From assembly GCA_000091205.1 (NCBI GenBank), contig AP006491.2: a stretch of DNA of 64,000 nt. The stretch is one strand, 5' to 3'. The DNA is from Cyanidioschyzon merolae. Lineage: Eukaryota. Positions 1,729 through 64,000 of the stretch are shown piece after piece (the first letter of the stretch is position 1; each line of letters opens with the position of its first letter). The notes beneath the pieces are model-generated. The model saw nothing but the letters and a program-made list of their open reading frames with translations. It did not search any database and had not been told where the DNA came from. Made by a program: the position numbers and the translations under genes.

Positions 1729-1900
1729 ATGGCTTGGCGTGCATCTGGGCACACGAACGCTGAACTTGTTCACAACCTGAAACGTTTGGGTCTTATTGAG
1801 TCGCCGGTGGTCGAAAAGGCTTTTCTGGCAGTCGACCGAAAATACTTTGTGCCAGTTGGGCGGCCAGCATCGGTCTCTTTATCAACGCCAAGCACCTCAG

Positions 1901-1934
<34 letters not shown>

Positions 1935-3580: not shown

Positions 3581-4046
3581 GTGCAGACGCCTCCTATCCG
3601 GTTTTGACTGGACACCTCTTATCGGTTTCAGTTTTTCCTTGCAAACTTCGAGCCTCAGAGGCTGGCCCGCAAAACTTCGCTCGCTTCAGCTCCGCAGGGC
3701 TCGTCTTCAAGATCGGCACATCGCCTGATATTGATCGCAGCCTTAAAGCCTCGGTGTACGAGCTCCATGCGTTTATTGCCACTGGTTGCATACACCAATG
3801 CATGGAGTCCTCGAACTCGAACCCTGAGTGTCACTGCGGTCTCGTCATGGTCCCGTCGGGCACACACGGTTCCTCGCCTATCGCCCATCTTCTTCTTCAC
3901 CACGTGCTCTCCTTCGCTCGACAGTCGGTGAGGAGCGGATTTTTCCGTTTCTTGTCGAACCTCTGGATGGCAGGCCCCTGGGATCCTCGACTTCCACGTC
4001 CATACCATTCCCTTGAATTTTTTACGTCTTCAAATGAACGCACTTG
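3581..4046 (-). mobile_element. miniature Fanzor/TnpB-derived non-autonomous element, copy F1 (~466 bp)
   Basis: Minus-strand frame reads ..GNKRMELVHRGFKAAINIRRCADL.. (ORF 3655..4008), homologous to the C-terminus of the large element protein (KKRMEFVNRDFNAAINIRRCAV). 5' end cttcaaatgaacgcacttgg (4029-4048, rc ccaagtgcgttcatttgaag) matches the 5' terminus of copies A, C, F2 and F3. 3' end ...ggaggcgtctgcac (rc at 3581-3594) matches the shared right-end core. Flanks outside are unique. Confidence 0.7.
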
Positions 4047-4106
4047 GAACGAGTCTGCTGTACACCGTGAACAAGCATTTGTTTACACGCACCTGGGCGC
4101 GGCACG

Positions 4107-5240
4107 TCATTGACATGAAAGACCAAAAGAGATTCGACGCTCACCAGAGCAGACCCCTGACGAACTCGGTGGGTCGTCGGCTTGCGCCCGCTGGGTCGAA
4201 CGTTGACCAGTTAGCAAAGCAAGAGCCTGCTGCAGCTCCTTCACTGCGGTCTCGTCGTCGTCGAACTCTGCTGCGCTCAGCGCTGACCGCACATGTCGCC
4301 TAAAGGCGTGCCGCGTGCCCGCTGTGACCCCGTTCCCAGGCGAACCGAGCATATCATCTATGGATTCTCTGCGTTTCCTTTCCTGTGAGGTCTCATTCGG
4401 AGACTGCGCTGATAACGGCTGCAGCGAAGCCGGCGCCTGCCTCTCGCTGCCAGCCGCTCCGTCGAACGCTTCCTGGCTGCGGCTAGTGATGCACTGCTGG
4501 TGCGTCGACGTTGGAGGCGGGCTTTCATCGTCGTCCACAGACTGGGGCGAGGCATCAGATCCCTCCGGACTTACAACACCGGTACTGTTCTGTTTGCCAA
4601 GGCTCGAAGACGAGCCCTTGTCTGGCACCGGTGCAGTACGTACGCTTTGGGTGACTTCCACACACTCGACATTGTCTTGCGTTGACTCCCGAAGCGCTCT
4701 TCGAGTCATCACGCACTTGTATTGAGCATATCGAATCTGCTGGGAAAGCTGGTCCCAGAACTCAGCTGATACTGCTGCGCCAGTACCCCCAGTGCTTGTT
4801 TCCGAGTCCTCGCGCCCCCGGAACTGTTCCAGCGCTTGCAGGAAGATAGACGCGGCATAAAACTTCGCAGCTGTCTCTGGGGCGGGTTTTCGTGAGATGG
4901 ACTCCTTCTCAGCTCTTTCAAATATTCGCGACGCAAAGCGGTGCAAGTACTCCAGCGGAGTATGCCGAAAAATCGACGACCACTCCCTAGAGGAGAGGAT
5001 TCGTGCCTTCAATGCCTCCAGATCGTTCATTTCCTTTGAGAGAAAAGCAGCAATCCGCTTTTGTTCATTTGTATGGGTCAACTGCCGGCGAATGCCAAGG
5101 CCCTGCTCTACAGCATACAAACGAGTGAAGTACGAGACTACAGGTTCAATGTGGGCAACCTCGCGGCCCCGCGCAAAAAACGGGTACAGGCCCTGCAGCG
5201 CGTCAGGGACGTCTGCTATACCGTCGAGCTCGCTTTCCAT
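4107..5240 (-). CDS. VTA1: Vta1/LIP5-like protein (ESCRT-III/Vps4 cofactor family), tentative
   Basis: N-terminal region LYPFFARGREVAHIEPVVSYFTRLYAVEQGLGI...KEMNDLEALKARI resembles the Vta1 N-terminal domain (PVVAYYCRLYAMQTGMKI...LMDQLEALKKQL). A C-terminal ..AVKELQQALALLT resembles the Vta1 VSL tail. Start moved to the ATG at 5240-5238, because ORF-track residues 1-60 (from a TTG at 5420) are the 3' flank of Fanzor copy A. Confidence 0.5.
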   Translation of the reverse strand: MESELDGIADVPDALQGLYPFFARGREVAHIEPVVSYFTRLYAVEQGLGIRRQLTHTNEQKRIAAFLSKEMNDLEALKARILSSREWSSIFRHTPLEYLHRFASRIFERAEKESISRKPAPETAAKFYAASIFLQALEQFRGREDSETSTGGTGAAVSAEFWDQLSQQIRYAQYKCVMTRRALRESTQDNVECVEVTQSVRTAPVPDKGSSSSLGKQNSTGVVSPEGSDASPQSVDDDESPPPTSTHQQCITSRSQEAFDGAAGSERQAPASLQPLSAQSPNETSQERKRRESIDDMLGSPGNGVTAGTRHAFRRHVRSALSAAEFDDDETAVKELQQALALLTGQRSTQRAQADDPPSSSGVCSGERRISFGLSCQ

Positions 5241-5269
5241 GCTGCGACCACACTCCTGCAAACAAACGT

Positions 5270-7790
5270 CTTTCAAAACAAAAACGCTGTCGCCAGCGGT
5301 GTACCGTAGTGGCAGTGAACGCGCCCTAGACAAGGAGTCTCCAACTGACGTGCAGACGTCTCCCAGTTTTTTTCGACCGGCCACCTCATACAGGATACAA
5401 CTTTTTCTCATATAGTTCAACTTTCAGAGGTTGTCCAATAAAGTCCCTTCTTGTGGACTCTGGAGGTCTCGTCTCCAACACCGCACATCTCCTGATATTG
5501 ATAGCGGCGTTACAGTCTCGGTTCAAAAACTCCATACGTTTCTTGCCATTGATTGTACTTACGAATGGAAGTAGTCCCCGAACTTTCGCTCTCCTTTCCA
5601 TTTGTTCATCTGTCAGCGCTCTATACTTTTTTATATCCTCAGGGCTCCTCTGGAACTTTTCCATCTCGATCCTCTGGAGTGCACAGCCCAGTTCGTGGTG
5701 TGTGATTACGATGTCCGGAACTCATCTATCGGTATGGTCACGAAACCGTCTGCGCACTCCTTGCACGTTCTTGTCAACGGTGCTGGTATGCTCTCTCTTT
5801 GGGTCACCCGCCGTCCTGCTCCATACGTTACCACGAGCCTCTGACTCTTGTCCTCCTTGAGGATGCTCAACTCATTGAAAAAGCTGGTCAACGCATGCTC
5901 CCTTCCCACAATACAAGCTCAAACACAGACGAGCTCACGGAAGTTTGGTGTACGCTTTCCACAGCGCCTCGTCATGCGCAGCTTGAGTGTCCATGACCTC
6001 TGGAAAATCTTGAAAATCCGCATGTCGGATCGTCACCTCGCTCATAGCTTCCCTGTGATCCTTCATTCCTGCATTCCATGTCTCAATTTTCTTCCCTGCA
6101 TTCATGATTCCCGATTCTCGATAGTATCTCGCGCTCGAGAGCCTCAAAAGTCGCATATCTCTCTGACGTACTCTACCCTCAGTATCATCTTCCGCACGCT
6201 TGGGTACAGCGATGGTAATGATATTCGTGTTTCCGGGGTCCGCGCCGACGACAAAGTCGTTCTCCTGCACCTTGTTCGTCGTAGGACACGCCTTCTTGTT
6301 ATCTTCGTGCTCCGCCGACGGCGATATCGAGGACGAAACAGGACGAGCTGCCTTCAACTGCCGATCGTGAACACACTAGGATACTCCATCGGTTTCGATG
6401 ATGCCCGTGAATACCGTTTTCTTGCTCGTTTCGAGACGCTCGAAATCGAAGATATTCTTCCAGGGCTTCTCGTGGTTTTCACCGGTGAACCCTGTCTTCC
6501 TTACATCGAACCCCCGGACAGATCTCCTTCATGATGCCGTAGAGGACTCCGGCGTCGATCGTTCCAAAATCGAACTTGATGATGCATAATGGAACGACGT
6601 TGAAGCGCTTCCCCATTAGGGTCGCCCACCGCTTCAACGACTCTTCGTTTGCTTCCTCACCGTGCTCCATATCCGCCTCGGGATCGAGTTGTCGGTCCAG
6701 AAACACGAAATATCGCACGACGAGGCGATCGCATCTTTCCTTGATGTTTTTCAACTCTGATATCTTTTCTGCTGGATTCGGCATCCCCAGCACCGCACGG
6801 TGCTCTCCTATAACCGCACGGATGACAGAAGCTTCGTTCGTGCTCTCGTTCGACGCCTTCGCTCCGACGAATTCGATCTCATCTTCATTCTGACTATCGT
6901 TCGCGATGCCATTGATGCTGGCCTTTGTCGCTCTGCAAGACGGGCCCGCGTCCAGCGCAGACACGGCGCGTATCATGAAACGTTCGAGGTTCACGGTCAT
7001 GCGGTTCTTCAGGTTCTCGTGGTGCTTCATTGCCCCGTATTCGTAAATATCCGCGTCACCCTTGTATCGAGTACCGTTGGAGCGGTATTTCGCGAAGTTT
7101 TCGTGGAGGGCATACATTCGCGCATTTCTCCTCGACGTTTCCCGCGTGCCAATCACCAGATGACGAATACAGGTCTTGTCGAAAAATTCTTCCGGAACCT
7201 CGACTGTTTTGGTGTCCATCACGTCGCGATACATATCTCTCGCGATATGCATCAGTGCTACAGCAGCGTTACAAACACGCATAGAGTGCGACTCGAAACG
7301 GGGTCTGATGGCCTCTTGGAGCTTTTCCGTGTACGGATCCCTGATGTGTTTATGAAGACAGGCTTTCACCAGCATCTCGTGATATTATCGTCTTTCTCGC
7401 ATCCATCGACGTCGGGCCTCCCGCCGTAACTTCTCCTTCTTGTCTCGTTCCGCTTTGCTCGGCTCTGTTTTTCATTTTTCCCCGGCAGCCGGCAACACCA
7501 GGCCTCCAGGATCCTCCATTTCCATTACTTTCCATTTTTATGATAAGAATGCACTTTGAAAGCGTTTGCTATGAACCACGAAAAATCACTTGACCATAAT
7601 ACTGTAAGGGCTGAAACACGAATGAATCGCAAGACTATATTTTGCTATGACTTCAACGCAAATACACCTTTTTCCCGTAGAAAAACACGCTGCTGATCAG
7701 CATCGCGTTTCCTTTCAATGGCGGCATGCGCGTCGTTTCTCATGTCAACCAGATATGGTCATATGCTTGTGGACCGCGATGCGTAAAGGT
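5270..7790 (-). mobile_element. Fanzor (eukaryotic TnpB-like) element copy A, degraded; core 5350..7593 plus flanks shared with copy C
   Basis: Protein in ORFs 6479..7375, 5935..6357, 5706..5909, 5386..5664 (minus). Right-end core ctgggagacgtctgcac (rc at 5350-5364). 5'-end core tcaagtgatttttcg (rc at 7579-7593). About 190 nt upstream and ~85 nt downstream flank are ~80-85% identical to the flanks of copy C. Confidence 0.75.
5386..7375 (-). pseudogene. TnpB/Fanzor-like RuvC nuclease gene, disrupted (one frameshift near 6479, in-frame TAG near 6360, further frame breaks)
   Basis: Four ORF pieces in different frames. Motifs: [17 protein letters not shown] (RuvC-I-like), [54 protein letters not shown] (TnpB RuvC-III-like DxNAAxNI). 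Translating the minus strand across 6361-6480 gives [34 protein letters not shown] where copy C continues ..[14 protein letters not shown]..., i.e. TAG in place of ATG. Confidence 0.7.
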
Positions 7791-10967: not shown

Positions 10968-11450
10968 GCGCAGACGCCTCCCAGCGGTTCTTTTTTAACT
11001 GACCACCTACTATCGACTTCAGCTTTTCCTTGTAAACTTTGAACCTGAGAGGCTGCCCCGCAAAGCTCGATCGCGTCAGCTCCTCGGACCTCGCCTCCAG
11101 CAACGCACATCATCTGATATTGATGGTTGCGTTAAAGTCTCGGTTCGCGAACTCCATGCTTTTGCTGCTTCTGGATGAACTCACCATTACGAGGATTGCT
11201 ATAGTTTGCGACCTCTGTATCACTCCAGTCTCGTCATCGCTCCGTCGTACAAACACGTTTTCTCGCCTATCTCCCATGTTCTTCCTCTTCCCTATGTGCT
11301 CCGTCACTTGCTCCTCTTCGCTCGATAGTCGGCGAGAAGAGGAGTTTTCGTTTTTCTCCGGCACTCGGCGATGACAACGCTCCAGGATCCTCGATTTGCA
11401 TATCCATATCATTCCCTTGGATTCCATATTTCTTCACCTGAACGCTTCTG
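10968..11450 (-). mobile_element. miniature Fanzor/TnpB-derived non-autonomous element, copy F2 (~483 bp)
   Basis: Minus-strand frames read ..KSMEFANRDFNATINIR (ORF 11110..11427) and ..FAGQPLRFKVYKEKLKSIVGGQLKKNRW (ORF 10843..11103), homologous to the last ~130 aa of the large-element protein. 5' end cagaagcgttcaggtgaag (rc at 11432-11450). Right-end core gggaggcgtctgcgc (rc at 10968-10982). Same internal-deletion architecture as F1, F3 and F4. Confidence 0.7.
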
Positions 11451-11694
11451 CTACGCACCGCGAACCAGCGTTTCATGACACGCACACGCGTGGGGAACTT
11501 CATGGAGGTGAAAGCCTCGACAAGCATTGTCCAATTTCATGCTGCATTGTACATATGCCGTTTTATACAGTTTCCGAATGCCACTGCTGGCTGCGCGCGC
11601 GCAGGCATCCAGCGAGCGATGCGTCGTGGCGTCCTACGAACGCATCCATGCGACTCGTCTCGCAACTGCGTTTCACGACGAAGGCTCAAACGCA

Positions 11695-27493: not shown

Positions 27494-28050
27494 GTTGCTA
27501 ACCGGCACCAGGCTTGGGCCTATGCTTCGGATGTTCCGAACCCGAAAGCAACCTGTGCGCGATGTGGCACACAGTTGCCACGAACTCCGCCGCAGCAGCG
27601 GTACTGTTGCTGGAAACGCAACGTTCCGGGCGCTCCGCAGCCGCTCCGCCCGAAAAAGCGCCTGTCGCGAAGCGGCCTGGGCGGGACACGGGGGCAGCGT
27701 TTGATGTTCATTATTGTCTCATTTAATGCTGGTGGTGCATGGGGCGCGCTCCTCTGGAAACGTTCCCCCTACGTTTGTCCACTGGACGGTGTCGTTTCAT
27801 GGGGTACCAAGTTGCTTCGCAAGTTGCTCGGCGTACAAGTATGCCCCTGGTGCGTGGATGCATTGCTTGAGGCGTTGACAGGAATCGAACAGAATCGAAT
27901 CCTGCACTCAGTGTACGCTCCCGTCGACGGAGCGGGCGTGCACCCCTGGCGCTGCAGCTCGTCTGGCGTCGTCATCTACCAGCGAACGACGCGTCTTGCA
28001 GAACAGTTGCTTTCGCAACTCCTTTGGACAAGTTCGACGACGCACAAATC

Positions 28051-29237
28051 TTACCGCTGCACAAGCGATACAGGTGGCGAACGCTGCCCAGTCTCGTGGA
28101 ATCGATGGAAAGCGCGTTTGCATATGCTATATGGACGCGCACGTAGGCTCAGCATGAAGCGTACAGAGCGTTGTCCTCTGCTCAACACGGCTCTCAGCGC
28201 GTTCACGCGAGTCCCGATACCGTTACGCCCCTTGTTGGCATGCCTGCTGGTGTCCGTCATTTCGGATTGCCGTTCAGACGGAGCGATGGAAACGTTGTGC
28301 AGCTTCATCTGCTTCCCGTTCAGGTCTTTGGCGGTATCACCGTGATCTAGGGATTCGACAAGCGCCATGACGCGGTTCAACCGCAGATCCACGCGTACCA
28401 GAAGGTGTTTCTCTTCGTCTGCGTTGAACAGTTTGCATTGAGTCTCGGTGCTCGACACGGAATCAATTTTTACGAAATGAATGCAGATTGAGATTCCATC
28501 GAACGCCATCATCCCGGTCCATTGCTTTCCATTTTCTCCGAGTAAACCAGAAACCTTGGAGGAGCTCTGCCTGTGCTCTTCTCGAAGGTTTTCAAATACG
28601 TCGTAGTTGCTCGCTGAGACGGGCTCCTTCTTCGCCTTGTCTTCGATTTGGCGCGGTTGCATACACGCATGCATGCGCTCGCTATACTCCATGTATGTTT
28701 GTATCGCTTGGCATGCAGAGGCACTGGATGACGGACGGTGCTGAAACGCGCATGTTCTGTCTATTGATCGACGATTCCTCAAGAATCCTGGTCATCTTCT
28801 CTGTCGCAAGCACGCCCACACATCAAAGCGCCTTTGCACGCGCTTTTCCACGCACGAGCAGAGAAACAACAGCGTAGTTCAGGGCTGCTGTATGTACTAA
28901 AGCACAGTTTGTCAAAGCACGATTTACAGACACACGGGATCGTGGATGCGAACGACTCTTCTATTGATCGGGCAGCGCGACCGTGGCGTTTTCCAACCCG
29001 ATACGACGCCACTGACTGTATGCAAACAGGGAGAAAATCGGCCAGCGTAACCAGGAACGCAACGCCGATCTCAGCTGCAAACTCCTTCACCGCGTTTGAT
29101 CGATGGAAAGCGACGTCATTGAAGAGCACCACATAAGAATTCGGGAAAGCGAAGCCAAGAAAAGTGCTTGGATGAAAAACGTGGTGTGAAACGAGCCTGT
29201 CCTTGTTGGCGATTCGCAGGCGACCAAACGATAGCAT
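28051..29237 (-). CDS. hypothetical protein, possibly one gene split over two abutting ORFs (28779..29237 and 28051..28782) by a frameshift
   Basis: Two minus-strand ORFs meet within 3 nt in different frames. The upstream piece starts with an ATG at 29237. Both pieces contain similar segments (YVVLFNDVAFHRSNAVKEF / YDVFENLREEHRQSSSKV). No confident family assignment. Confidence 0.25.
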
Positions 29238-31014
29238 TGCGGCTTCAGTTCATGGTATCGGCGTGCTCGCACGTCTCCTCTTTGCGGAGAGCGGTTTGTC
29301 GCTCTTGGAGTGCCCACACACAGGTTTATGATTTTTCCGAATTCAATCTCATCGACTAAGACGGACATCTGTCCACCGTTGTTAAGGGCGCTCGGGTTTC
29401 CATACGTCGTCGATATTCTGTTGTTCGACGCGCGTCACTCTATCATAGAGATGATCGTTTCCCTTCATATATCCGTATCTTTTCGTTGCCGCTCGAATCA
29501 ACTGTGCGAAAAAGTCCTAACCCGGGGGTTGTCTCATGGTATTCCTTAGAACACGTGTTGTGTGGAATATGTTGACGAGGAAACAGTCGTGCGGATAGCG
29601 TTTAAAAAACGTTGTTTTTCGTCTGCGTGCTGTTCAGGACAATACACAACAGACAGTTGGATACTCTACCTGTACAAGTAAGACTGTTGTTCCGAAATCT
29701 AGCAGAGACAGCATCGAGTCTCCATGCAATTGTTCTCCTATCAACATGATGCGATCGTTTTTTGTTTCATATCTGCGAGAAAAACAAACGACAGTGCAGG
29801 TTGGAACGAGTATGCCGCAACGCACCGCTCTGCATGTAACGCACTTGCTGTCCATCCATGTAGAGTCTCGTGCGTTTTCACGATGTGTAAGGGACTGGAG
29901 GCCTCCGCACCAACTCCACATTGCTCTACAGGTTCGCTTTTGTTTTCGCAACATCCAGAATGAGAATCCAGAGCACTTGGTTCACTTTTCTTTGTTGGTC
30001 CATCATAAAACATAACCCGAACGCTGAAGCCCCAGCGCCACGACTGTAAAGCGGCTAACCAGAGGTCATCCCGCAAACGAAAGCGATGGTGCCCGACGCC
30101 GACGCCAGCGATGGATCGTCTTCGAGTCTCGGGCTCAGCGCACGTCGAGTGTTTCAGCGGGCTGCAGAGCACACGCAAGAACGTAAAGCAGTATTTTCGG
30201 GTTAGCGCATCGAGCGGTCTGGCGTGATATACCCAGAAACGACACCCACACCCAGACGCCTTCCAGGGAAGCACCGCATACAATGATCCCGCCGAACGAC
30301 ACGATGCAGGTGCTGTCGTCGACCTTGGTCCTTGCTCACTGTTTTCCAATCAGCACTTTGTGCGACATGTCGCGTTTTATCGGGGACTAGGGAATCAGAG
30401 GCGCCAAGCTGCTGAGCTAGTCGCTGTTCGGAAAGAGGAACAGCTCCAGGTAGCGTCGTCTGCTGCGCGTGACGCGCCCGCGCTCGGCCTGCTGCTGGGA
30501 ACAAGAGCCCTTGGCAGGTCGCGGAAAGCGTCCAAGTCCCTATTAGCACAGGCGTGAGCACAGCACACGCGAATGCATTGCCTCACGGAAAATACTGCCG
30601 TCCGACAGGTTCCCGGGTGCTGTCCTGTTGCTATACTGTCCATGCTGAAAGCCCCGCGGTGCCGTTCATGATGCTGCACACAGCCGACTATGACGATACC
30701 GAGCCAGGAAGCGTTGTCGTCGTCGTTGTCGTTGTCGTCTCCTGGGCACACTCGAGGTGCGCTGGTATACATCGCGCAGTTGCCAGCGTCATGGACTGAG
30801 CGTTACTGTCGCCACACAGGGTGCTCGCGACGGGCCTTGTATCTGAAAACATGAATGATTGGGGTTCGCGGGGGCCAGCGGCTACCAGCAGGAGCGCATT
30901 CTACATAGCTTCTCGACCTGAGCGATTCGATATACGGCACGTATCCGCGGCATGACTCGAGTGCCGGAGTTGCTGCCATTCACCTGGTTTTCATGAGCTA
31001 GAGGTGCGGCTACA

Positions 31015-32463: not shown

Positions 32464-32856
32464 GGTGCACGAGGGAGAGGTTCCTGGTGTTCTCTCTGCA
32501 CTCAGGACACCAGCATGGTGCAGCTAGATCCTGTTGCTGGTGAAGCGTGCCACGAGCAGCGCACCGTTCAAGCGCAGCGTGCTCGATGCGAAAGCACTGG
32601 TAGCTCGCTGGGCGTGTCGGTCGTCCCAGTCGTAGCGTTTTCGCGCACCAGCGGATGAGTTGCAGTGAAGGAGTAGAGCGGCATAGGGTCGAGGCCAGCG
32701 GGTACGTCGAAGCTGTCCCAGTACGAATAGTCCATAAAAGTATAGCATCCAATCAACCCTCCGTTCGCCTGAAGCGTACCATGTCCGTTGCTACCCTCTG
32801 TCTTCCGTTTCGATGGTACTCCATCCCCAGGTATCGGTAACCAAATGCTTTTTCGC

Positions 32857-33171
32857 GGTTTATAGAAGAAGCGTTCCGAGCGCGTTGATTTTGAGAAATA
32901 AAGAATCTGAGGGAAAAGTATGAAGGCGTGGATTTCGGGTACCCGGTGTCGTCAGGCGCCGGAAATAAACGAACAAAACATCGTATTGCTGCCGACAATC
33001 GAGCGATGAAGAGCAATTGACGAAAAATAGAAGACGGTTGGAGATAGGGGAGAAAAGGTGTTTGTAAGACGGGACGATGACGAGAGTGTAGTGGTTCAGA
33101 AGGGCACGAATGCGAGGAATCCTTGCAGCAGTGCATTCAACAAGAGGCAACAAACGCAAGGAGTTTGTGAA
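32857..33171 (+). mobile_element. miniature Fanzor-derived element copy F4, 3'-truncated at a tail-to-tail junction with copy B
   Basis: 5' end agaagaagcgttccgagcgcgttgattttgag matches the mini/full 5' terminus. The internal sequence aligns with F3 across the mini-specific deletion junction (...ataggggagaaaaggtgtttgtaagacgggacgatgacgagag...). The sense frame reads RRARMRGILAAVHSTRGNKRKEFVN and then stops matching at 33171. Confidence 0.6.
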
Positions 33172-35165
33172 CTCGTGGCCTTCTTGCCATTTCCTTTTCG
33201 GTTAGCGCTACGTGCTTTCCTATCTCCCAAGCGGGTCGCTGGCAATTTCCCATCTCGATCCTCTGGAGTTTACAGCCCAGTTCGTGGTGTGTGATTACGA
33301 TGTCCGGAACTCATCTATCGGTATGGTCACGAAACCGTCTGCGCACTCCTTGCACGTTCTTGTCGACGGTGCTGGTATGCTCTCTCTTTGGGTCACCCGC
33401 CGTCCTGCTCCATACGTTACCACGAGCCTCTGACTCTTGTCCTCCTTGAGGACGCTCAACTCATTGAAAAAGCTGGTCAACGCATGCTCCCTTCCCACAA
33501 TACAAGCTCAAACACAGACGAGCTCACGGAAGTTTGGTGTACGCTTTCCACAGCGCCTCGTCATGCGCAGCTTGAGTGTCCATGACCTCTGGAAAATCTT
33601 GAAAATCCGCATGTCGGATCGTCACCTCGCTCATAGCTTCCCTGTGATCCTTCATTCCTGCATTCCATGTCTCAATTTTCTTCCCTGCATTCATGATTCC
33701 CGATTCTCGATAGTATCTCGCGCTCGAGAGCCTCAAAAGTCGCATATCTCTCTGACGTACTCTACCCTCAGTATCATCTTCCGCACGCTTGGGTACAGCG
33801 ATGGTAATGATGTTCGTGTTGCCGGGGTCCGCGCCGACGACAAAGTCGTTCTCCTGCACCTTGTTCGTCGTAGGACACGCCTTCTTGTTATCTTCGTGCT
33901 CCGCCGACGGCGATATCGAGGACGAAACAGGACGAGCTGCCTTCAACTGCCGATCGTGAACACACTAGGATACTCCATCGGTTTCGATGATGCCCGTGAA
34001 TACCGTTTTCTTGCTCGTTTCGAGACGCTCGAAATCGAAGATATTCTTCCAGGGCTTCTCGCGGTTTTCACCGGTGAACCCTGTCTTCCTTACATCGAAC
34101 CCCCGGACAGATCTCCTTCATGATGCCGTAGAGGACTCCGGCGTCGATCGTTCCAAAATCGAACTTGATGATGCATAATGGAACGACGTTGAAGCGCTTC
34201 CCCATTAGGGTCGCCCACCGTTTCAACGACTCTTCGTTTGCTTCCACACCGTGCTCCATATCCGCCTCGGGATCGAGTTGTCGGTCCAGAAACACGAAAT
34301 ATCGCACGACGAGGCGATCGTGTCTTTCCTTGATGTTTTTCAACTCTGATATCTTTTCTGCTGGATTCGGCATCCCCAGCACCGCACGGTGCTCTCCTAT
34401 AACCGCACGGATGACAGAAGCTTCGCTCGTGCTCTCGTTCGACGCCTTCGCTCCGACGAATTCGATCTCATCTTCATTCTGACTATCGTTCGCGATGCCA
34501 TTGATGATGGCCTTTGTCGCTCTGCAAGAGGGGCCCGCGTCCAGCGCAGACACGGCGCGTATCATGAAATGTTCGAGGTTCACGGTCATGCGGTTCTTCA
34601 GGTTCTCGTGGTGCTTCATTGCCCCGTATTCGTAAATATCCGCGTCACCCTTGTATCGAGTACCGTTGGAGCGGTATTTCGCGAAGTTTTCGTGGAGGGC
34701 ATACATTCGCGCATTTCTCCTCGACGTTTCCCGCGTGCCAATCATCAGATGACGAATACAGGTCTTGTCGAAAAATTCTTCCGGAACCTCGACTGTTTTG
34801 GTGTCCATCACGTCGCGATACATATCTCTCGCGATATGCATCAGTGCTACAGCAGCGAAAAGAACACGCATAGAGTGCGACTCGAAACGGGGTCTGATGG
34901 CGTCTCGCAACTTCTGCCTACGTGGATCCTCGATATGTTTGAGAAGACAGGCTTTCACCAGCATCTCGTGGTACTGTCGTCTTTCGTGCAGCTTTTGACG
35001 TAGGGCCTCGCCCTTTTGCTTCTTCGTCCTGTTTCGTTCCTATCCCATTAGCACTGTTTGTCGTTTTTCTCCGCCTGCCGGTAGCAAGGGCCCTTCAGGA
35101 TCCCCGACTTGCACCCGCATAGCTTTGCTTTGGCGTTTTTATTTCGTCAAAACGACCGCACGTCT
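33168..35165 (-). mobile_element. Fanzor element copy B, 3'-truncated; body ~99% identical to copy A, 5' end of a different sub-lineage
   Basis: 33245-34985 is near-identical to 5660-7400 (only a few aa differences in the paired ORFs). The 5'-UTR part 34985-35165 is only ~70% similar to A. 5' terminus aaaaagacgtgcggtcg (rc at 35154-35170) aligns with the F3 terminus. The 3' part ends at 33168-33180 (sense ..MARRPRV), ~45 nt upstream of the RuvC-III codons. Confidence 0.7.
33170..34964 (-). pseudogene. TnpB/Fanzor-like nuclease gene, truncated and carrying the same frame lesions as copy A
   Basis: ORFs 34068..34964, 33524..33946, 33295..33498 plus the MGNCQRPAWEIGKHVALTEKEMARRPRV piece mirror the ORF pieces of copy A, including the same TAG and frameshift. 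Confidence 0.7.
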
Positions 35166-36160
35166 TTTTGGCCTTAGATGAGGGCTTTCTCGGAGGGAGC
35201 GTGGCTTTCGCAAGAAAAACGACATGTGCCCCGATGTGTTACCGAGTAATGAACGCTCAGCGTTTCGCCCGGGGGAGCGATCATCACGTTTCACGATAGA
35301 AAACACTCCTACAATGCGCTTGAACCACGGAGCGCACAGACGAACAAAAATCACCCCTACCCCGATAGAATCGGCAAAAAGCTCGAACGCAAGCGATATG
35401 GTGATATGCCACGTTGCCCAATAGAAGGACGTCGCCAGACGTCCGGTAAAAGTCTTCAATGCTTGGACAAATTGGTTGGTGCTGTTGCATGTGTCTTTTC
35501 TACAAGTGAAACTGAGGCCACCAAATAAATCTTCTAAAGCTATAATAGATGATGATTTCGTCGTTCTCTTCGAGCTCGATCGAACGTACAACGGGCGTCC
35601 TTCACCTCGAATACCCATTGACGCTCCGAGCGTGCCTTGCGAAGCAAGTTTCATCAACTGAACAAACAAACTGACGATCCGGTGGTTCCTATCGATCGTG
35701 ACGTTCCAGGGACTCTGTTATTGCGATTTGGATGGAAGATGCCATTGCTTGAACGATGACTCTTTTTGAGATTGTATCCCAGTGTTTTCAGGATCATAGG
35801 CGCGACTTGGTGAGAAACAGAGACGCCTGTGGCGACTATGATCGTCGCTGTTGCTTTCCGAAAATGGTGATCAACGGATCGTTTTCTAAGATCGACTGCA
35901 AGCGACCTCTATGAATATCGATCTCTGGCACGGAGTGCATCTACATTTTTCTTATAGTTTTCGCCAACCATCTGAGTACGTCGGTATGACTGTCCTAAAC
36001 GAGGAATGCAGTCCTCCTTGGACTGTTCAGAAATGAATGTAAATGCTACATGCAAATCATCTACGATCTACACTATGCATTGCATTGCGATTTCGATCTC
36101 CTAGACATCGCAGCGGAAGTGAAACAGAATTTAGTACAAAGACTACAAGAACGGAAACCT
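35166..36160 (-). repeat. ~1-kb repeat S, copy 1, directly abutting the 5' end of Fanzor copy B
   Basis: Its reverse complement aligns block by block (~75-85%, with indels) to 52740-53753. Example: aagaaaaatgtagatgcactccgtgccagagatcgatattcatagaggtcgcttgcagtcgatcttagaaaacgatccgttgatcacc versus aagaaacaagtagatgcgctctgtgtcagaaattggtattcttaaagatcgcttgaagtcgatagtagaaaacgacctgttcagc. No conserved long ORF. Confidence 0.55.
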
Positions 36161-38739: not shown

Positions 38740-40349
38740 TAGCCAGAGTTATAAACAAAAACGAACCTACAAGTTGAACTCGTAGAAGAACGCAAACGTT
38801 CACACACAACACGAACAAGCAACTCGCCTTGTGATCGTCGACGATGGACGGCAGCGTGCTCGCGATGCAGGGCTTCGGGGGCGCGCGGCGTTGGACGCTA
38901 CCGCCGCCGATGGCGACGCTATAGACGCTGCCGCGTTTTCGCTCGATGTGCCTGCGCTGGAAAAAAGGAACGCTGCTATCGCTTTGAGAGACAGCAACAT
39001 CTGGGTATCACTGTGGTAAATGAAGGCCAGCCACTTACTTTGAGTGTAGTACTAGCAACGAATGGTCCCGTAGCTGAGCCCCAGTGCTCGCGAGTGGCCA
39101 GTGAACTCATACTCTACCTTCTAGGTGGAAGGTCCAGTGAACGAGATGCGCACACGGGACCAGTGTTACGCGCACCTACTCACTGGTGGGTGGCAAGCAC
39201 AAGCCCGAGTCGCCAACCGAGGGCGACGCTTTCCGTGTACGATCACGCAGGAGAGAGGCGGCTCCCAGGATTCATCGTAACAGCCAAGTTTCTCCAACGT
39301 GTTGTGCAGCGAAAGCAAGTTTTGCATCCGCAGGCTGTCCGAGCGCAAACTGACGACGAGACCCGATTCTTTGTCGAGTGAAGCACGCCTCGAGCAGACG
39401 CCGTCTGTGGTACGGCAACGCCGTTCTGTTTCTGTGCTACGACAGCACCGGCGCTACAAGCGCTATTGAGGCGGATGTTCACGGGCAGGCACTCGGCGCC
39501 CGATAGCACGTCTGAAACGCCAGTACATCCGAGACGAAGTATGGATTATGAAACTTGGACGTAAGGCGTGGAATGACGAAAGTTTCACCGCGCGCAGGCT
39601 CCAAGCGCACAGAGTCGCGGCACGCTCGCCTGTGTGAGAAGTTTTCACATGGAACAAAATCCGCTGCCTTTGCTGTTGCCGCTGATTGTTCTCCAATGAC
39701 AAAACATTTACATGGTATTTGGATTCCAGATAGCGAGATGGATAGGTACTGGTGATCGAAAAAGTGTCCATCGTGATGCACTCTACCTCCATGCCCCATT
39801 ACTTATACTTACTTTCGGATGTACTGATCGTTTTGTGCGTTCTGTAGTGCGCCGAGTGCCTGCTTTGAGCAACCGCCTTAGCGCCTAAACTGCTGAAGCA
39901 GATACTGCACGGAGATAGAACGGCGTTGCCATACCACTGAGGGCGCCGGATCGATGAACGCTTCACCTGATACAGCGTTGGAATGCACAATAATTCTGGG
40001 AGCCTGTAGGCTAAACAGACACAACTACTGCCTGCGAAAGCGCGAACCGATATATTAGGAGTCTACTGCGATCCGGGCGACGACCAAACACAGCATCCCG
40101 CGTCTAGTCCCAGAATGAACTGCGTTGCGGACGAGCTGCTCAGGTCTCGCCACAGCGCCCGCTACTGGGGGGAGCACGAAGCACGAGTCTGGGAGACTCG
40201 TCCTGCTCGCGGGACTTTTCGCCTAGAGGGAGGATTCTTCAGAATATGGAAACCTTTTTCCCCGTTTTCAAAGTTTATCGTAGAACGGGAGAGAAATTGC
40301 TGTATCGTTGCTCGCTAGTCGTGAGTCTCTCTTCTTTGTTCTACATAGT

Positions 40350-42945
40350 GCTGTCGATTTGCGCACCAGGGAGATCTGTCAGTTTCGAGTCACGACGCGT
40401 ATGCTGCCGTTGAAGGGAAACGCGATCCTGATCAATAGCGTGCTGCTCTAATGTGCAAGTTGTACTTGCGTTAAAGACGTAGCAAAGTACAGTTCTTCAG
40501 TTCATTTGTGTCTCAAACCTCAAACAAGTGTATTCAACTGTTTTTTCGCAGTATATAACTGAAGCGTTCAAAGTCCGTTACAAAAGATAAAAAAGGAAAG
40601 TTATGGAAAAGGAAGTGGAGGATCCTGGAGGCCCAGTGTGGCTGGCCGCCAGAAAAAAAAACAAAAAAATAGTGCCGAGTCCAGAAGAAAACGAAGCGAG
40701 AAAGAAGCAAAATGGGGGCCCTACGTCGAAGGCTGCAAGAAAGACGTCTGTACAACGAGACGGTGGTGAAAGCCTGTCTTCGTAAACATACCAAGGATCC
40801 GTACAAGGCAAAGTTGCGAGGCGCTATCAGAAACCGTGTCGGGTTGTAATCCATAACGATTATAAAGGGGTCGTCAGTACGAATGCATTTGGCGAGGGAG
40901 ATGTACGAAGACGTGACGCACGTGGAAACAGTCGAGGTTCTGGTCGAGTTTTTCGACAAGACCTCTATTCGTCACCTGATGCTTGGTACGGGGGAATCGT
41001 CGACAAAGAAAGAGCTAGTGCATGCCCTCCACGAAAACTTCGCAGAATTCCGCTTCGAGGGAACTCGATACAAGGGTGACGGAAATATTTACACATGCGG
41101 GGTGATGAAGTACATCACGAACCTGAGGAACCATTTGACTATGAACCCGGAGCGTTTCATGATACGCACCGTCTTTGCGCTGTACTCGGGCCTGTCTCGC
41201 AAAGGAGTATGGGCGATTACCAATGGCATCACGAACGATCGCAAGCATGATGAGATCGAATTCGTCGACAGGAAGGCGTCACGCAGGAGAAGGTTTAAAA
41301 CTTCTGTCATCCGTGCGGTTATACAAGAGCACCGCGCAGTCTTGGGGTTGGCGAATTCAATAGAAAACATATCAGAGTTGGAAAAAGATAAGGAAAGATA
41401 CGATCGCCTCATTCTGCGCTATTTAGTGTTCTTAGACCGAGAACTCGAACGCAAGGCAGAGGTGAAGCTGAGTGAGGAAAAAATGAAGAGTGGAGGAGAC
41501 GGAAGGCTGACCTAATGGGGAAGCGCTTTAACGGCGTTCCGTTGTGCAACACCAAGTCACATTTCGTGAGTATCGACTCCAGACTCTTTTACGGCATCAC
41601 GAAGGAGATCAGTCCCGACTTCAATGTTAGCAGGGAGGACTTCACCGGCGAAAACCGGGAGACGTGCGGTAAGAAAAGTATCTTCTATTTCAAACGTCTG
41701 AAAGTGAGCAAACAAAAGATATTCACTGGGATGATCGAAACCGATGGAGTAGCCATGTGTGCACACTATCGGCGCTTGACGACAGATCGTCCAGTTCCGC
41801 CCGTGACGAAGCATGAAGAGAAGAAGGATGCGGGTCCTGCGATGCAGGAGGTGGAGGATAACGACCTGGTCGTTGACGCGACGAAGCATGAAGATAACAA
41901 CAAGGCGGCTCCTGCGACGCAGAAAGTGCAAGATATCGACTTTGTCGTTGGCGCGGACCCCGGAAACACAAATATCATCACCATCGCAGCACCGAAGTGT
42001 GCGGAAGATGGTACTGACGGTAGTTTACGTCAGAAAGACATGCGTCTATTGAGGTTCTCGAGAGCTAGATACTACCGAGAATCGGGAATCATGAATGCGG
42101 GGAAGAAAATCGAGAGCTGGAATTCAGGAATGAAGGATCACCTAGAAGCTTTGAGCGAGGTGACGAGCCGCGGAGCCGACATTGAAGCTTTTCGGGAGTC
42201 CATGGAAGGTCCGCGTTGCTCATTGGGATACGCTGTGGGAAGAGTACACCAAGCGCCGGTGGGCTCGTCTGCGTAAGAATCTGTATTGTGGTAAGCAACG
42301 TGCATTTGCCAACTTTTTCAATGCGTTGAGCGCCCTCAAGGAGAATGAAAGTCAGAGGCTCGTCGTAGCGTACGGAGCAGAGCGCTGGGCGTCCAAAAAA
42401 GGGACTACACCAGCTCCGTCGACAAGAACGTACAAGGAGTGCGCACGGCGTTTCGCTACGATACCTGTAGACGAGTTCCGAACATCGTATACACACCACG
42501 AACTGGGGTGTACGCATCACAGAGTGGAGATGGAAACGTGCCAGAGGAGTCCTGAGGATATAAAAAAATACGGAGCGCTGATGGAGGGGCAAATGGAAAG
42601 GAGGGCGAAATTTAGCGGATTGCTTGCATTAGTAAGTACACTCAATGATGGCAAGAAACGGATGGAATTCGTGAACAGAGACTTTCACGCAGTGATCAAT
42701 GTAAGATGTGCGGTAATGGAGAAAAGGCCTCGATACTGGACACGAGAGAACTTTGTTGGACAACCTCTCAAAGTGGAACTATATAAGAAAAAGCTGGAAG
42801 CAGTAATGGGTGGCCGGTCCAAAAAAACTGGGAGGCGTCAGCACATCAGTTAGAGACGATTTGTCTAGGGCGCGTTCGCCGCCACTGCTGAACACCGTCG
42901 GCGTCGTTCGACTTTTGCAAAGTGTTCGGTATCGGTGTCGGTGAC
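40350..42945 (+). mobile_element. Fanzor (eukaryotic TnpB-like) element copy C, degraded; core 40524..42844 plus flanks shared with copy A
   Basis: 5' terminus caaacaagtgtattc (40521-40535). 5' leader with ggaggatcctggaggcc. Right-end core gggaggcgtcagcac (42830-42844), followed by atcagttagagacgatttgtctagggcgcgttcgcc, which matches copy A downstream. Confidence 0.75.
40711..42853 (+). pseudogene. TnpB/Fanzor-like RuvC nuclease gene, disrupted by an in-frame stop near 40790 and frameshifts near 41515 and 42200
   Basis: ORFs 40883..41515, 41515..42276, 42182..42853 are homologous along their length to the copy A pieces. Motifs: [48 protein letters not shown] then HHELGCTHHRVEMETC, KKRMEFVNRDFHAVINVRCAVM. 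N-terminus MGALRRRLQERRLYNETVVKACLRKH then stop. Confidence 0.7.
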
Positions 42946-50509: not shown

Positions 50510-51164
50510 AATAAGCACAAGCAACCTAGAAATAACGAATAACGGCTCTCTTACAGGCACCGTCACGAGTTGTATGGCACCACTTGTCGAGGCGGTACCT
50601 GCGCAGCGCGCCCGCCATACCACTCCCACTCGACGACCGTACCAGCGCACGACGGTGCCATCGGTCAGCCCGTACCGTTCACCGTATCGAAGCTATTCAT
50701 ATCCATTCAAACCGGCGGCTTACCTTCCTATGCATCCCAGCGCTTCATATCTCTGCAAGTGTCAGTTTTAGCGACCGGTTGTCACATGCAGAAATTTTGC
50801 AAAGCACCTTTGGCGTCATGTAGATGCAGCGGCGGCGGCGGCGGCGGTGGTAATGCATGCACGCATCTGCGTGTCCGCTACGTGTGCAGCGCATCGCGAT
50901 GCGTGCGATCGGAGACGCAGGCGCGCGCGCCCCGTGCGGATCGGTGCGAAGGGTCGCGATCTGGCGACGCACAGCATCGCCGCTGCGCTGCGCGTTTGCA
51001 TCGGGTGCTGATCCTCGAGCCGACGCCCTCTGTGGTATAGAAAAGCTGTTCTTGCTCAATGAAGTATCTGCTCCAGCGGCTAAGTTCCCAAGGCGGATGA
51101 TTAGGTTAGGTACTAGGCACACACGACAGGACGTACGAAACGACCAGAATATCCGAGAAGAAGT

Positions 51165-51306
51165 ATAGGTAATGGAACTTGGAGGTAGGGCGTTTGATAG
51201 ATACTCCACCTCGCACTGAAAAAATAACACAAAAAAGTTTGAAAAGAAAAATGCGCATCATCGGAGAACGCTGGCACAAGTAAACGTTTTGTCCATGAAA
51301 AACATC
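51165..51306 (+). repeat. ~145-bp dispersed repeat R, copy 2
   Basis: ataggtaatggaacttggaggtagggcgtttgatagatactccacctcgcactgaaaaaataacacaaaaaagtttgaaaagaaaaatgcgcatcatcggagaacgctgg... See copy 1. Confidence 0.5.
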
Positions 51307-52739: not shown

Positions 52740-53753
52740 GGTTAGAGGCGCTCGACTTTATTGTGTTTCACTTTCGCTGCGTCGATGCGAATGGTACTGC
52801 GCATTGCGTAGGAGGAGATCGAATTCACGATGCAGTGTACCGTATAGATTGTGGACGCATCGCCTATAGGATATATATACTTGTCTGAGCAATGCACGGA
52901 GGACCGCATTCTTCATTTAGGTCAGTCATACCATACTAGTCAGATTGATGAGGAACACTGAAAGAAACAAGTAGATGCGCTCTGTGTCAGAAATTGGTAT
53001 TCTTAAAGATCGCTTGAAGTCGATAGTAGAAAACGACCTGTTCAGCAAGTCATGAAGAGCAAAAGCGACAATAATAGCCATCATGGGCGTCTCTGTTTCT
53101 CAACTGCTCTTTCGTGTCGTCCTGTAAACACTGGGATACAGTCGCAAAAAGCGAGTCCAGTTACATGTACGACCATCTTCCACCGAAATCGCAACTAGCA
53201 CAGAGTCTCTGGAACTCAGCGATCGGTACGAGGCACCGCATCGTCTGTTTGTTTCTCCAGTGGATGAGACTTGTTTCGGAAGGCACGGTCGGAGTGTATA
53301 ACGATATTCCCGGAGAAGGGAGCCCGTTGTACGTACGATCCAAGTCGAAGAGAACGACCACATCATCATTTGTTCTGGATGGAGTGGATTCATGTGTTGG
53401 CATCCGTTTCACTCGAACAGGAGGCGCATACAACAGCATCAATCGCTTTGCTGAATGATTGAAGACGTTTCCCTGACACCTGGCGAGGTCCTTCTATTCG
53501 ACAACGTGGCACTTCACCATTCCCTTTGCGGTCGAGCTTTTTTCTCTTCTATCTGGTAGAACTGCTTTTCATTCCTCCGTACGCTGCATGATTCAATCCC
53601 ATCGAATAAGTGTTTTTCTATCGTGAAACGTAGTGATCGCTCCAGTGGGCGAATCCCTGAAGAGTGTTTACCACGGTGACAAAATGAGGAACGTTTCGTC
53701 TTTCTTCCGCAAGCCCTTCTCGCTCAGGGAAGGTCCTCACCTAATGCCATAAA
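52740..53753 (+). repeat. ~1-kb repeat S, copy 2, directly abutting the 5' end of mini element F3
   Basis: Aligns with the reverse complement of 35166-36160 over its whole length and continues seamlessly into the F3 5' terminus (..cctcacctaatgccataaacaagtgcgttcg..), exactly as S copy 1 continues into copy B. Confidence 0.55.
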
Positions 53754-54217
53754 CAAGTGCGTTCGTTTTTGAAGGACAAAAACCCAAGGGAAAGGCATGC
53801 ACATGTTAGTCAGGGATCCTGGCGGGTCGATGTCGCGGGCTACCAGGAAAAACGACAAAATTCTCTTCTCGCCTACCATCGAGCGAAGATGCGCAAGTAT
53901 CCGAGAAGAATAGGGGATATAGGCAATGAAACGTACTTGCCCGAAAGTATGACGACGAGACTGCAGTGGCACAGAGGGCACGAATTCGAGGACTCCTTTC
54001 ATCGGTGAGTTCCACCAGCGGCAATAAACGCATGGAGTTCGTGAACCGAGACTTTAACACCGCCATCAATATCAGACGATGTGTGGTGCTGAAAATTAGG
54101 ACCGACCGGCTGACGAGAGCGAATCTCCTGGGCTAGCCCCTCAGATTCGAAGTGCACACGGCGAAGCTGCAGCCGAGAGCAGGCGACCGGTTCGAAAAGG
54201 CTGGTGACGCGTCTGCG
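53754..54217 (+). mobile_element. miniature Fanzor/TnpB-derived non-autonomous element, copy F3 (~464 bp)
   Basis: 5' end caagtgcgttcgtttttgaaggacaaaaacccaagggaaaggcatg...cagggatcctggcggg. Sense frame: LARKYDDETAVAQRARIRGLLSSVSSTSGNKRMEFVNRDFNTAINIRRCVVLKIRTDRLTRANLLG*. Right-end core gctggtgacgcgtctgcgt (54199-54217). The ORF body between the 5' leader and the last ~95 codons is absent. Confidence 0.7.
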
Positions 54218-54525
54218 TATCGGTGGATACATGCGCATTCAATATTTGTACAGCTTTGTGCTTTTTTAGGACGATCTGAACAATTAGATATCCTAAATGG
54301 GCCGCAAAGCATCCATTGCGAGTGATGGAAACAGCATCAGCGACAAAACTACATCTAATGATTTCTAAATAGATCTTATCAAACTAAACGAACAAAACGA
54401 TCCTTGGCCTCATCAGGTTCCTAGATGCATCATGGACGCCCCCCGCCACGCGCAATCTTTCCCGCGTTTTTCCGCTTCGCATTGGAGCTGCAGAGACGGC
54501 ACCGAGTACTTGCACAGAGGAAGCC

Positions 54526-62800: not shown

Positions 62801-64000
62801 TTATTCCATGGCGATAAATACGCAGTTCAGCGCATAGCTGCGCTTATACTCCTTCAACGTGAGCGCACAACGAGTAACCGATTCCATTCTATACAATTCC
62901 CATCGAAGCAATCAGGAAGACATCCACACGTCACGAGCACGGGTGCCTGCTGAAACTGGTAGACAAGTCGCGCATGAAACAGAGCAGAACGTACGATATG
63001 GAGTCCGACCAGTTGACCAAACATCAGATGACGGTACAATCGAAAGTGAGAGGTTCGCTATGGTATGGTTCCAACGGCGAAAAGGCGCGCAAACTCTTTC
63101 CCCACCCGGTCTTGAAGGTCTCGATCGACATCCGCAAATCTGGACTACACCCGAAGGTTCCAGCGGTAAAGTTCCGCGCGAACCTGCAAGCGAATCATCT
63201 TGTACTCCATATGGACATCGTGCTGAAACGCTGAAGAATTCCACTGAGATAAAGCGTTGACCTGGGGGCTGCGGGCACTGGATTCCCATCTGGAGCAACG
63301 CACTCATATGGTACAGTTCAGCAATTCATCAAGGTAAGTGCGCCGAATGGATCTGCTTCTGGGACGGTTTCCACGGGCAACTGGTGATCCATCATTGTGT
63401 TCCAGTATTCAGTATGATTGAGAATACGACGTAAACACTGTTGGAGCACAACGCTTGAGGGCGCTCGCTGCTCCACGTGCCCAAACGCCACCAAGGAGTA
63501 GCGAGCAGCAGCAAGCATCATGCCCGTACGAGTGTGGTGTGCAGGGCACTCCTTTTGTCTGCGGATATAGCGCTTTTCATGGTTGTGGACAGGAAAATCT
63601 CACTAGATTTGTACGCCGGAGCAATGACCGGGGAAGAGAACTCAGCTTCTCCGAAGATGGGGTCCCGTTCCAATACCACCACCACCACCACCACCAGTAC
63701 GGAAGGCATGCTGCCGAGGCGTCCAGTCTTGATCCAGCGACCCTGCAGCTACTGATCCTCCCACAGACGTTTGCTGATGTGTCGCATACGCTGTGATCAA
63801 CGCGCGCTACTACTACCACTGGCAAAGCTGCGAGCTCCACCCAAAAGCAGCATGGCGTTGCAATGTCTCTGAAACGAGTGTCAGCTCGCGGCAATGTATG
63901 CAGCGTACCAAGGTGCAACTCGAGGCGTTGCTCGTCAATGCGTATCGGGCGCGCGCTCTCTCTTTCTCTCTTTCGCTTCAAATCAGCAGCCCTTGCACTT

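Follow-up and report, generated by a model that had tools for sequence, protein, structure and literature searches.

A repeat adjoining CMe-1 elements of Cyanidioschyzon merolae is probably a decayed DDE transposase gene that once travelled with Fanzor1

Mariner elements that encode both a transposase and a Fanzor1 protein are represented by PUl-1 of Pythium ultimum and by PGv-1 (Bao & Jurka 2013, PMC3627910, section 7), and the Fanzor1 elements MCi-2A to MCi-2D of Mucor circinelloides are known to carry alternative 5′ regions (PMC3627910, section 12). The same 2013 survey reported one Fanzor1 family in Cyanidioschyzon merolae (Bao & Jurka 2013, PMC3627910). CMe-1A, with a 3169-bp consensus and ~150 copies, was entered there as 'no TIRs (terminal inverted repeats), classification unknown'; it was left unclassified, with no TIRs, target-site duplications (TSDs) or transposase recorded, and no transposase is given in Additional file 1 (Bao & Jurka 2013). 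Here we examine a stretch of 64,000 nucleotides of contig AP006491.2 (assembly GCA_000091205.1), hereafter the window, which covers genes CMI278C to CMI288C on chromosome 9 (810,151 bp) of C. merolae 10D, and in particular a repeat termed S that adjoins some of the CMe-1 copies in it. The repeated elements of the window show TnpB/Fanzor motifs and match the Fanzor1 family CMe-1A. C. merolae, an alga amenable to genetic work, has almost no introns or transposable elements. We consider it very likely that S represents the 5′ half of a DNA transposon with two genes, the S-type CMe-1 element, in which a dead DDE transposase gene lies upstream of Fanzor1. The S-type copies would then indicate that the CMe-1 Fanzor1 gene once shared a mobile unit with a DDE transposase of the Tc1/mariner type, which would place the family with PUl-1 and PGv-1. 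The advance is modest and consists of this apparent transposase-bearing CMe-1 subfamily, of what looks like a second, ancient family of transposase plus Fanzor1, and of a gene conversion that is polymorphic among strains.

The repeat occurs twice in the window. S1 (35162..36129, minus strand) forms the 5′ module of the CMe-1 copy called B, and S2 (52761..53754, plus strand) that of an internally deleted element, or mini, whose remaining CMe-1 part is called F3. In a self-blastn of the window, 35057-36102 aligns with 53859-52813 in inverted orientation at 73.3% identity over 1055 columns (E 7.6e-167; 1.75e-168 in a second search). The repeat recognised in an earlier note is thus real and far beyond chance, although its claimed identity of ~75-85% comes out slightly lower, at 73.7% (723/981) between 35166-36160 and 52740-53753. 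Identity varies little from end to end of the repeat (66-82% per 50 columns, few indels), and a more sensitive search of the window found no further copy of the S body. The alignment continues for ~110 nt past S into the common 5′ coding region of Fanzor. As a reference for the elements themselves, the 3169-bp CMe-1A consensus was taken from Additional file 2 of Bao & Jurka 2013. Both copies of S meet the element at the same point, as had been noted: the junction lies at consensus 869-871 in S1 (35161/35162, minus strand) and in S2 (53754/53755, plus strand), ~35 nt upstream of the Fanzor1 ATG, and everything upstream of consensus ~870 is replaced by S in B and F3. The ATG lies at position 906 of the consensus, and the conserved GGATCC that had been read as a 'terminus core' is therefore the start of the open reading frame (ORF), MEKEVEDPGG.

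Copies of S outside the window were sampled by one exact 27-nt pattern scan of metagenomes, using the best-conserved block of S, and from called ORFs. The scan yielded five loci (L005, L006, L007, L008 and L009). Three of these (L007, L008 and L009) are orthologues of the S1 locus. L006 contains S3 within a full-length S-type element that aligns to consensus 868-3169, and L003 and L004 are identical to it; the contigs on the GLTP-gene side of this locus all end inside the element. L005 contains S4 together with a mini. A word-indexed protein search with the S1 ORF as query returned the S1 orthologues and one other copy, S3, and nothing more. Sequence-level comparisons of S cover four copies, S1, S2, S3 and S4.

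The identity of S emerged from protein-level comparisons. A phmmer search with the 176-aa ORF of S1 against 1.84 billion representatives gave 57 matches, most of which are short ORF fragments of other S-like relics. Among them are four intact proteins of 215-302 aa (P0205, P0222, P0223 and P0226), which carry the Pfam domain DDE_3 (E 1e-22 to 1e-25) and the Tc3-type helix-turn-helix (HTH) domains HTH_Tnp_Tc3_2 and HTH_23. By tblastn, the four cover ~290 of 300 aa on S, and P0205 aa 1-294 aligns to nt 58-948 of the S consensus across shifting frames. Their best E values are 2e-30 for the S consensus, 1e-22 for S4, 3e-18 for S2 and 3e-10 for S1, and they give no tblastn alignment to the 5′ region of A-type copies, that is, of CMe-1 copies with the leader of the published consensus. 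Moreover, the translated majority consensus of S1, S2 and S4 matches Pfam DDE_3 (PF13358) with an E value of 1.7e-9 and 38.1 bits, for which the gathering cutoff is 28.6; taken singly, ORFs from S or from the elements had no Pfam match. S aligns also to the HTH region of the intact relatives (P0222 aa 12-110, 'SHT..RWL'), with no direct Pfam HTH match on S itself. Relics of the catalytic motifs, DET.., ..DNVAFHH and ..P(W)F.(P)IEG.., follow one another in the right order, and the ancestral spacing appears to have been D..D..34..E, as counted by eye on the intact relatives and the S consensus. A giant predicted protein, P0172 (4633 aa), has eight segments that resemble the translated S1 ORF (E 1.9e-26) and is probably a gene model that spans many S-like relics in another genome.

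The pseudogene in S1 extends over 35175..36042 on the minus strand (tblastn of P0205 aa 13-234 and 152-293, and of P0223 aa 3-241). It retains the HTH relic RRTAFLVxDSHTDVLRWL (36018-35965) and the first catalytic D in VDETCF (35658-35632), but the second D is replaced by G in LLLGNVAYHH (35427-35398) and the third position, APWFKRIVGVFSIVKR (35333-35286), has V for E and stands in a shifted frame. Eight stops in a frame-2 segment of 224 codons, in addition to a frameshift, mark it as dead. The S2 counterpart lies at 52870..53661 on the plus strand (P0222 aa 12-232 and 240-259, E 3e-17 to 3e-18; also P0205, P0223 and P0226) and shows the HTH relic (52897-52947), the first D in VDETCFGRH (53260-53286), a second D that is kept in LLFDNVALHH (53491-53520), and ...CFSIVKR after the E position (53587-53631), with six stops in 224 codons. 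At least one frameshift is present in each of S1 and S2. In both, the relic is co-oriented with Fanzor1, starting ~57 nt from the outer end of S and ending ~20 nt before the junction. On these sequence comparisons, S is best described as a decayed transposase gene of the Tc1/mariner-IS630 type plus the 5′ end of the element.

It was correct, in the literal sense, that S carries no conserved long ORF: no intact ORF exists in it, and none exceeds 110 codons even in the three-copy consensus. What that description missed is the decayed gene. The mismatches between S1 and S2 show no codon periodicity (104/97/94; transitions/transversions 133/162) because both copies have decayed neutrally since their divergence, and the GC content is 47.5%. 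These properties might suggest that in a CMe-1 subfamily S serves as a non-coding leader or promoter module or forms a structured RNA. However, DDE_3 homology runs across the whole of S, Rfam gave no match at the gathering threshold or at E ≤ 1, no tRNAs were found, and RNAalifold on S offered no covariation support, its covariation term of +8.4 being positive and thus unfavourable. A non-coding S is ruled out by the DDE_3 homology (phmmer, tblastn and Pfam on the consensus), and we give it next to no probability. A pair of dead copies at 73% identity can thus lack any coding signal, and it took an exhaustive profile search and a three-copy consensus to recover the gene.

S and the adjoining Fanzor1 sequence behave as one unit with defined ends. 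Homology among S1, S2, S4 and S3 begins at 36129, where the 5′ terminus reads TTCTGTTTCAC... on the minus strand, and beyond it the flanks are unrelated; the outer boundary, TT[CG]TGTTTCA, is common to S1, S2 and S4. S2 plus F3 is a discrete S-type mini of 1457 bp (52761-54217), and a second S-type mini, of 1445 bp, is found at L005 2289-3733, with both ends coinciding with those of S2 plus F3 and with unrelated flanks. All four copies of S examined at the sequence level join CMe-1 at consensus ~870, and S-type and A-type copies have the same 3′ end. The orthologue of the gene flanking S4 lies on the 536,163-bp chromosome of 10D and that of the gene flanking S3 on the 902,900-bp chromosome, so that S-type units are present on at least two chromosomes and probably on three. 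One more relic ORF, P0180, crosses from S into sequence specific to the minis. Co-oriented transposase and Fanzor1 sequences are therefore found in one unit with common ends at independent loci. The question whether S is itself a transposable element, which had been left as a check, can be answered in that it appears to be the transposase module of one, in which no TIRs were found.

Two readings dispense with a single mobile unit. S and the element could be an ordinary segmental duplication that was copied by recombination, without ever having moved as a transposing unit; that copies do undergo ectopic gene conversion is indeed clear, as shown below, and S1 and S2 are only ~17 kb apart. The sharp, coincident ends, the unrelated flanks and the neighbour genes of different chromosomes are not what such a duplication would leave, and S encodes a transposase relic; moreover, ~50 further diverged S-like ORF fragments are seen in related metagenomes. 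This reading is very unlikely. Alternatively, S could be an unrelated Mariner-like relic that came to adjoin some CMe-1 copies through nested or adjacent insertions. In its favour, no TIRs or consistent TSDs define the composite, and most sampled CMe-1 copies are without S. This explanation would have to account for the same junction in four copies of S and for the matching ends and lengths of two minis at unrelated loci. Moreover, the published bipartite elements show the same orientation and spacing, and two more relic pairs of transposase followed by Fanzor1 exist in the window. Such chance adjacency is, in our opinion, highly improbable.

Several observations weigh against a once mobile S-type unit. 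The 5′ ends of S compared with the reverse complement of eight 3′ ends gave no TIRs, scoring no better than shuffles, and a repeat search for TIRs in the S-type unit also found nothing, a test that is low in power because the copies are old (~73% identical). Flanks of the form TA|...|TA are found for S2 plus F3 only; in S1 and S4 a TA stands 2-3 nt upstream of the delineated end, and the L005 3′ flank is without TA. S2 plus F3 is present in an orthologous contig as well (99.1% identical to the S2 locus), and an empty site was not found. The searches also yielded no intact S-type transposase, whose former activity is deduced from homology alone; on their own, the single-frame translations of S1 and S2 fall below Pfam significance. 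The majority, A-type copies are without S and have a different 5′ end, with seven A-type and two S-type among the full-length loci sampled. No copy of S without a CMe-1 part was seen in the one exact 27-nt metagenome pattern and the called ORFs, a sample that leaves room for solo copies of S in the genome. Finally, S3 may not be a locus of its own but the element that other strains carry at the S1 locus, because L007 and L008 carry S3-type sequence at the S1 flank.

The position of S beside the element had prompted the proposal that S is a repeated target, into which a full-length and a mini CMe-1 inserted independently at one point, either site-specifically or by Fanzor-guided homing. Two observations seem to fit. 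S abuts the element at an identical consensus position in B and F3, and S1 and S3 are 96-100% identical, whereas the attached Fanzor parts in 10D are only ~75% identical. Against the proposal, the CMe-1 part beside S is without its own 5′ leader (consensus 1-868; 787-868 in minis), and therefore no intact element terminus abuts S. In addition, the sequence past the 3′ end of the element is not S-like and differs between copies, the S-type units have common outer ends and unrelated flanks, and S is itself a co-oriented transposase relic, placed as in PUl-1. From general knowledge of the family, the guides of TnpB and Fanzor come from the 3′ flank, not from the 5′ flank. The second observation, a discontinuity between 75% and 97% identity, is due to a conversion tract from another copy, A, which is absent in L007. 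Insertion into an S target is thus extremely unlikely, and S is part of the mobile element rather than a landing site, which explains a repeat abutting an element terminus without targeted insertion. The competing suggestion in the earlier note, a composite of S plus element that was later converted, proved essentially right.

The conversion can be delineated in copy B, a 3′-truncated Fanzor1 pseudogene (33180..35161, minus strand; consensus 871-2872; blastn 80.6% over 2012 nt, tblastn with aa 1-658 of the CMe-1 protein). Window-by-window identities and a track of informative sites reveal a tract of ~1.65 kb at 33246..34900 (minus strand), for which the donor is ~5657-7310 in copy A, an A-type CMe-1A copy without S (5267..7754, minus strand; consensus 672-3169). 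A and B are in the same orientation and 28 kb apart. Within the tract they are 98-100% identical, and outside it about 70-75%. From 36143 to ~34950, B is instead 92-100% identical to L006. The orthologue L007, identified as such by 5.8 kb of unique flank, is without the tract; it is 97-100% identical to L006 throughout and ~75% identical to A. Strain L002 has the same tract, which, being absent in L007, is therefore polymorphic among natural strains. Copy B is a mosaic, an S-type element that was overwritten by a tract from A recently, in the 10D lineage.

The resemblance to PUl-1 and PGv-1 is close. In these elements, as in the S-type unit, a DDE transposase of ~300 aa stands upstream and a co-oriented Fanzor1 downstream, and unit sizes are about 3.3-3.6 kb. 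The transposase ATG of PUl-1 is at nt 61, 60 nt from the element end, compared to ~57 nt in S. The PUl-1 transposase is a homologue of P0205-P0226 (E 1e-16 to 1e-18) and also of the protein encoded by the S consensus (E 6e-5). PUl-1 differs in having 24-bp TIRs and TA TSDs, whereas the S-type has no detectable TIRs and TA flanks in one copy, and in a D-to-E spacing of ~43 as against 34 in the relatives and consensus of S (by eye); in contrast to PUl-1 and PGv-1, all S copies are pseudogenes. Compared with CMe-1A, S-type copies are CMe-1 from consensus ~870 on and share its 3′ end, but the first ~870 nt, including a part related to TE-N2_CMe, are replaced by the unrelated ~970-nt S. B and L006 consequently match the 3169-bp consensus only from 868/871 to the 3′ end and not over its full length, and on account of this replaced 5′ region the S-type copies are filed as a separate CMe-1 subfamily. 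The MCi-2 elements likewise combine a common 3′ Fanzor-coding part with varied 5′ regions of 1-3 kb, that of MCi-2A including a partial transposase (Crypton), but they involve another transposase superfamily, far younger copies (99% identical) and TSDs of 11-12 bp. The order of a transposase gene upstream of a TnpB-family nuclease gene in one unit also recalls tnpA-tnpB of bacterial IS200/IS605 and IS607, from which S differs in being a DDE (Tc1/mariner-IS630) enzyme, not an HUH enzyme or serine recombinase, and in having a eukaryotic host.

Taken together, an S-type CMe-1 element of ~3.3 kb may be proposed, consisting of a 5′ end of 50-75 nt, a gene for a DDE_3 transposase of ~300 aa, ~60 nt of spacer and a co-oriented Fanzor1, the putative TnpB-like RNA-guided nuclease of the CMe-1 family. 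By analogy with the rest of the family, the transposase would have mobilised the whole unit by cut-and-paste, and Fanzor1 would have served as a retention nuclease or travelled along as cargo. Two full-length relics of this type are seen, L006 and B with its S1. In S2 plus F3 and in L005, the transposase relic has been kept and most of Fanzor1 lost through internal deletion, leaving units of ~1.45 kb. All copies of S seen here are pseudogenes, in which the only changes still taking place are neutral decay and ectopic gene conversion. The A-type majority would have lost the transposase, or never had it, and would have taken up another 5′ region (TE-N2_CMe). The family may descend from the S-type as its autonomous ancestor, or the S-type may have arisen later, when a Mariner-like element fused with a Fanzor gene. 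A bolder version holds that the S-type relics are the lost autonomous founders, of Tc1/mariner type, of the whole CMe-1 family, and that the conversion of B by A was driven by breaks guided by Fanzor1 and its omegaRNA and repaired from other copies. We regard this combination as unlikely; were it true, it would amount to RNA-guided 'homing' in a eukaryote with very efficient homologous recombination. The link to a transposase also hints at where to seek the ends, the target site and the target-adjacent motif (TAM) of the family.

The window contains two older relic pairs of a similar design. DDE_3 relics were identified by tblastn at 28875-29315 (minus strand) and 60122-60820 (plus strand); Pfam gave no match on either of them, and their support is tblastn only. 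Each is followed downstream by a divergent, co-oriented Fanzor1 relic, at 27832-28674 (minus strand) and at 61661-62689 plus 62848-63213 (plus strand), respectively, which are 24-29% identical to CMe-1 (E 7e-10 to 4e-13). All four DDE_3 relics found in the window thus lie directly upstream of a Fanzor1 relic. By their sequence, the two older pairs look like a second, ancient family of transposase plus Fanzor1. They are situated in low-GC (~50%) patches.

The 5′ region of A-type copies bears little relation to S. Comparison of S with consensus 1-870 and with the upstream flank of A showed similarity at chance level only, apart from one motif of 12-13 nt. The weak similarity to S that had been suggested for the 190-nt upstream flank shared by A and C is likewise at chance level (Smith-Waterman scores 19-26; shuffle mean 19-21, maximum 26-29). 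This flank is consensus 672-870, and in C, a near-complete A-type CMe-1A copy without S (39696..42903, plus strand; consensus 3-3145), homology runs on to consensus position 3 at window position 39696. The shared motif, (A)ATTGTGTTTCA(AC), is located at the 5′ terminus of S (36117-36129 and 52761-52773) and at consensus 801-815, with shuffle counts of 89/500, 15/500 and 6/500. In the A-type leader it sits 14 nt inside the 5′ end of A-type minis. The motif is suggestive, and could be a common end-recognition motif or a remnant of the deletion of the transposase.

The minis consist of a 5′ piece (about consensus 787/826-969) and a 3′ piece (about 2780-3088). F3 (53755..54217, plus strand) is an internally deleted Fanzor1 remnant with consensus ~869-969 and ~2780-3088. 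The three A-type minis are F1 (3581..4121, minus strand), which has an A-type leader from consensus ~787/826 and is without S, F2 (10968..11514, minus strand) and F4 (32826..33172, plus strand), which is 3′-truncated and tail-to-tail with B. They had been thought to have unique sequence at the junction. Instead, about 40-80 nt of A-type leader (consensus ~787/826/833-869) precede it, and unique flank follows only beyond; blastn picks up F1 and F4 from consensus 826-833 onward, and alignments trace the homology of F1 and F2 back to ~787. The four minis with an intact 3′ end (F1, F2, F3 and L005; end coordinates 3581, 10968, 54217 and L005 3733) all stop at ...GGCGTCTGC(A/G), consensus ~3088, a comparison from which F4 is excluded by its truncation. 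From this end it is ~25 nt to the Fanzor1 stop codon, and full-length elements extend ~80 nt further 3′ than the minis. The same four minis also have one internal deletion junction in common, with an A-type or an S-type 5′ module alike; this common 3′ end and deletion junction across the two types imply exchange of the 5′ module between lineages.

The CMe-1 part of the elements is 80-88% identical to the consensus, and that of S-type copies 80-83% from ~870 to the 3′ end. The consensus protein and its homologs have, in the C-terminal half, split RuvC-like motifs (D ... E ... D), including NRDFNAAINI. BLASTP aligns the CMe-1 protein with another published Fanzor1 from RuvC-I to RuvC-II (E 3e-4), and Pfam gives a weak Cas12f1-like_TNB match at the RD motif (E 0.51). 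The PDB held no sequence matches for the element protein, and the AlphaFold2 model of P0074, with a mean pLDDT (predicted local distance difference test) of 33, is unusable for the RuvC fold. RNAalifold on 11 element 3′ tails (-7.9 kcal/mol), where an omegaRNA would be expected with its guide past the right end, found no conserved RNA fold with covariation support.

Several minor features of the elements were also recorded. Copy C reaches ~700 nt further 5′ than first delineated and includes a TE-N2_CMe-like part (635 bp, 39696-40330). TE-N2 fragments occur at 39362-39563 (inverted, just upstream of C), 51012-51189 and 58260-58606, and they also flank CMe-1 copies in L010, L013 and L018. Upstream of C, 39378-39542 forms an inverted repeat with 39805-39966. 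A 77-nt unit in the Fanzor1 ORF (consensus 2117-2196, HEDEKEA...VEDNDFVVGA repeat) is tandemly duplicated, with two copies in C (41802-41955) and five in L013-L015 (L013 3086-3465). B and F4 are joined tail-to-tail at 33150-33180, and both are cut within consensus ~2850-2920 at a short palindromic stretch, which therefore marks a rearrangement junction. The long ORFs of the window are those of eukaryotic genes (SacI, MGDG synthase and MCM-binding protein), and the elements lie in gene-proximal intergenic DNA. F3 ends 309 nt upstream of the gene for MCM-binding protein (54217-54526). In L006, the blastn alignment puts consensus 3169 at position 10612, so that the element terminates ~40 nt ahead of the start codon of a GLTP-like gene (L006 10569-10612).

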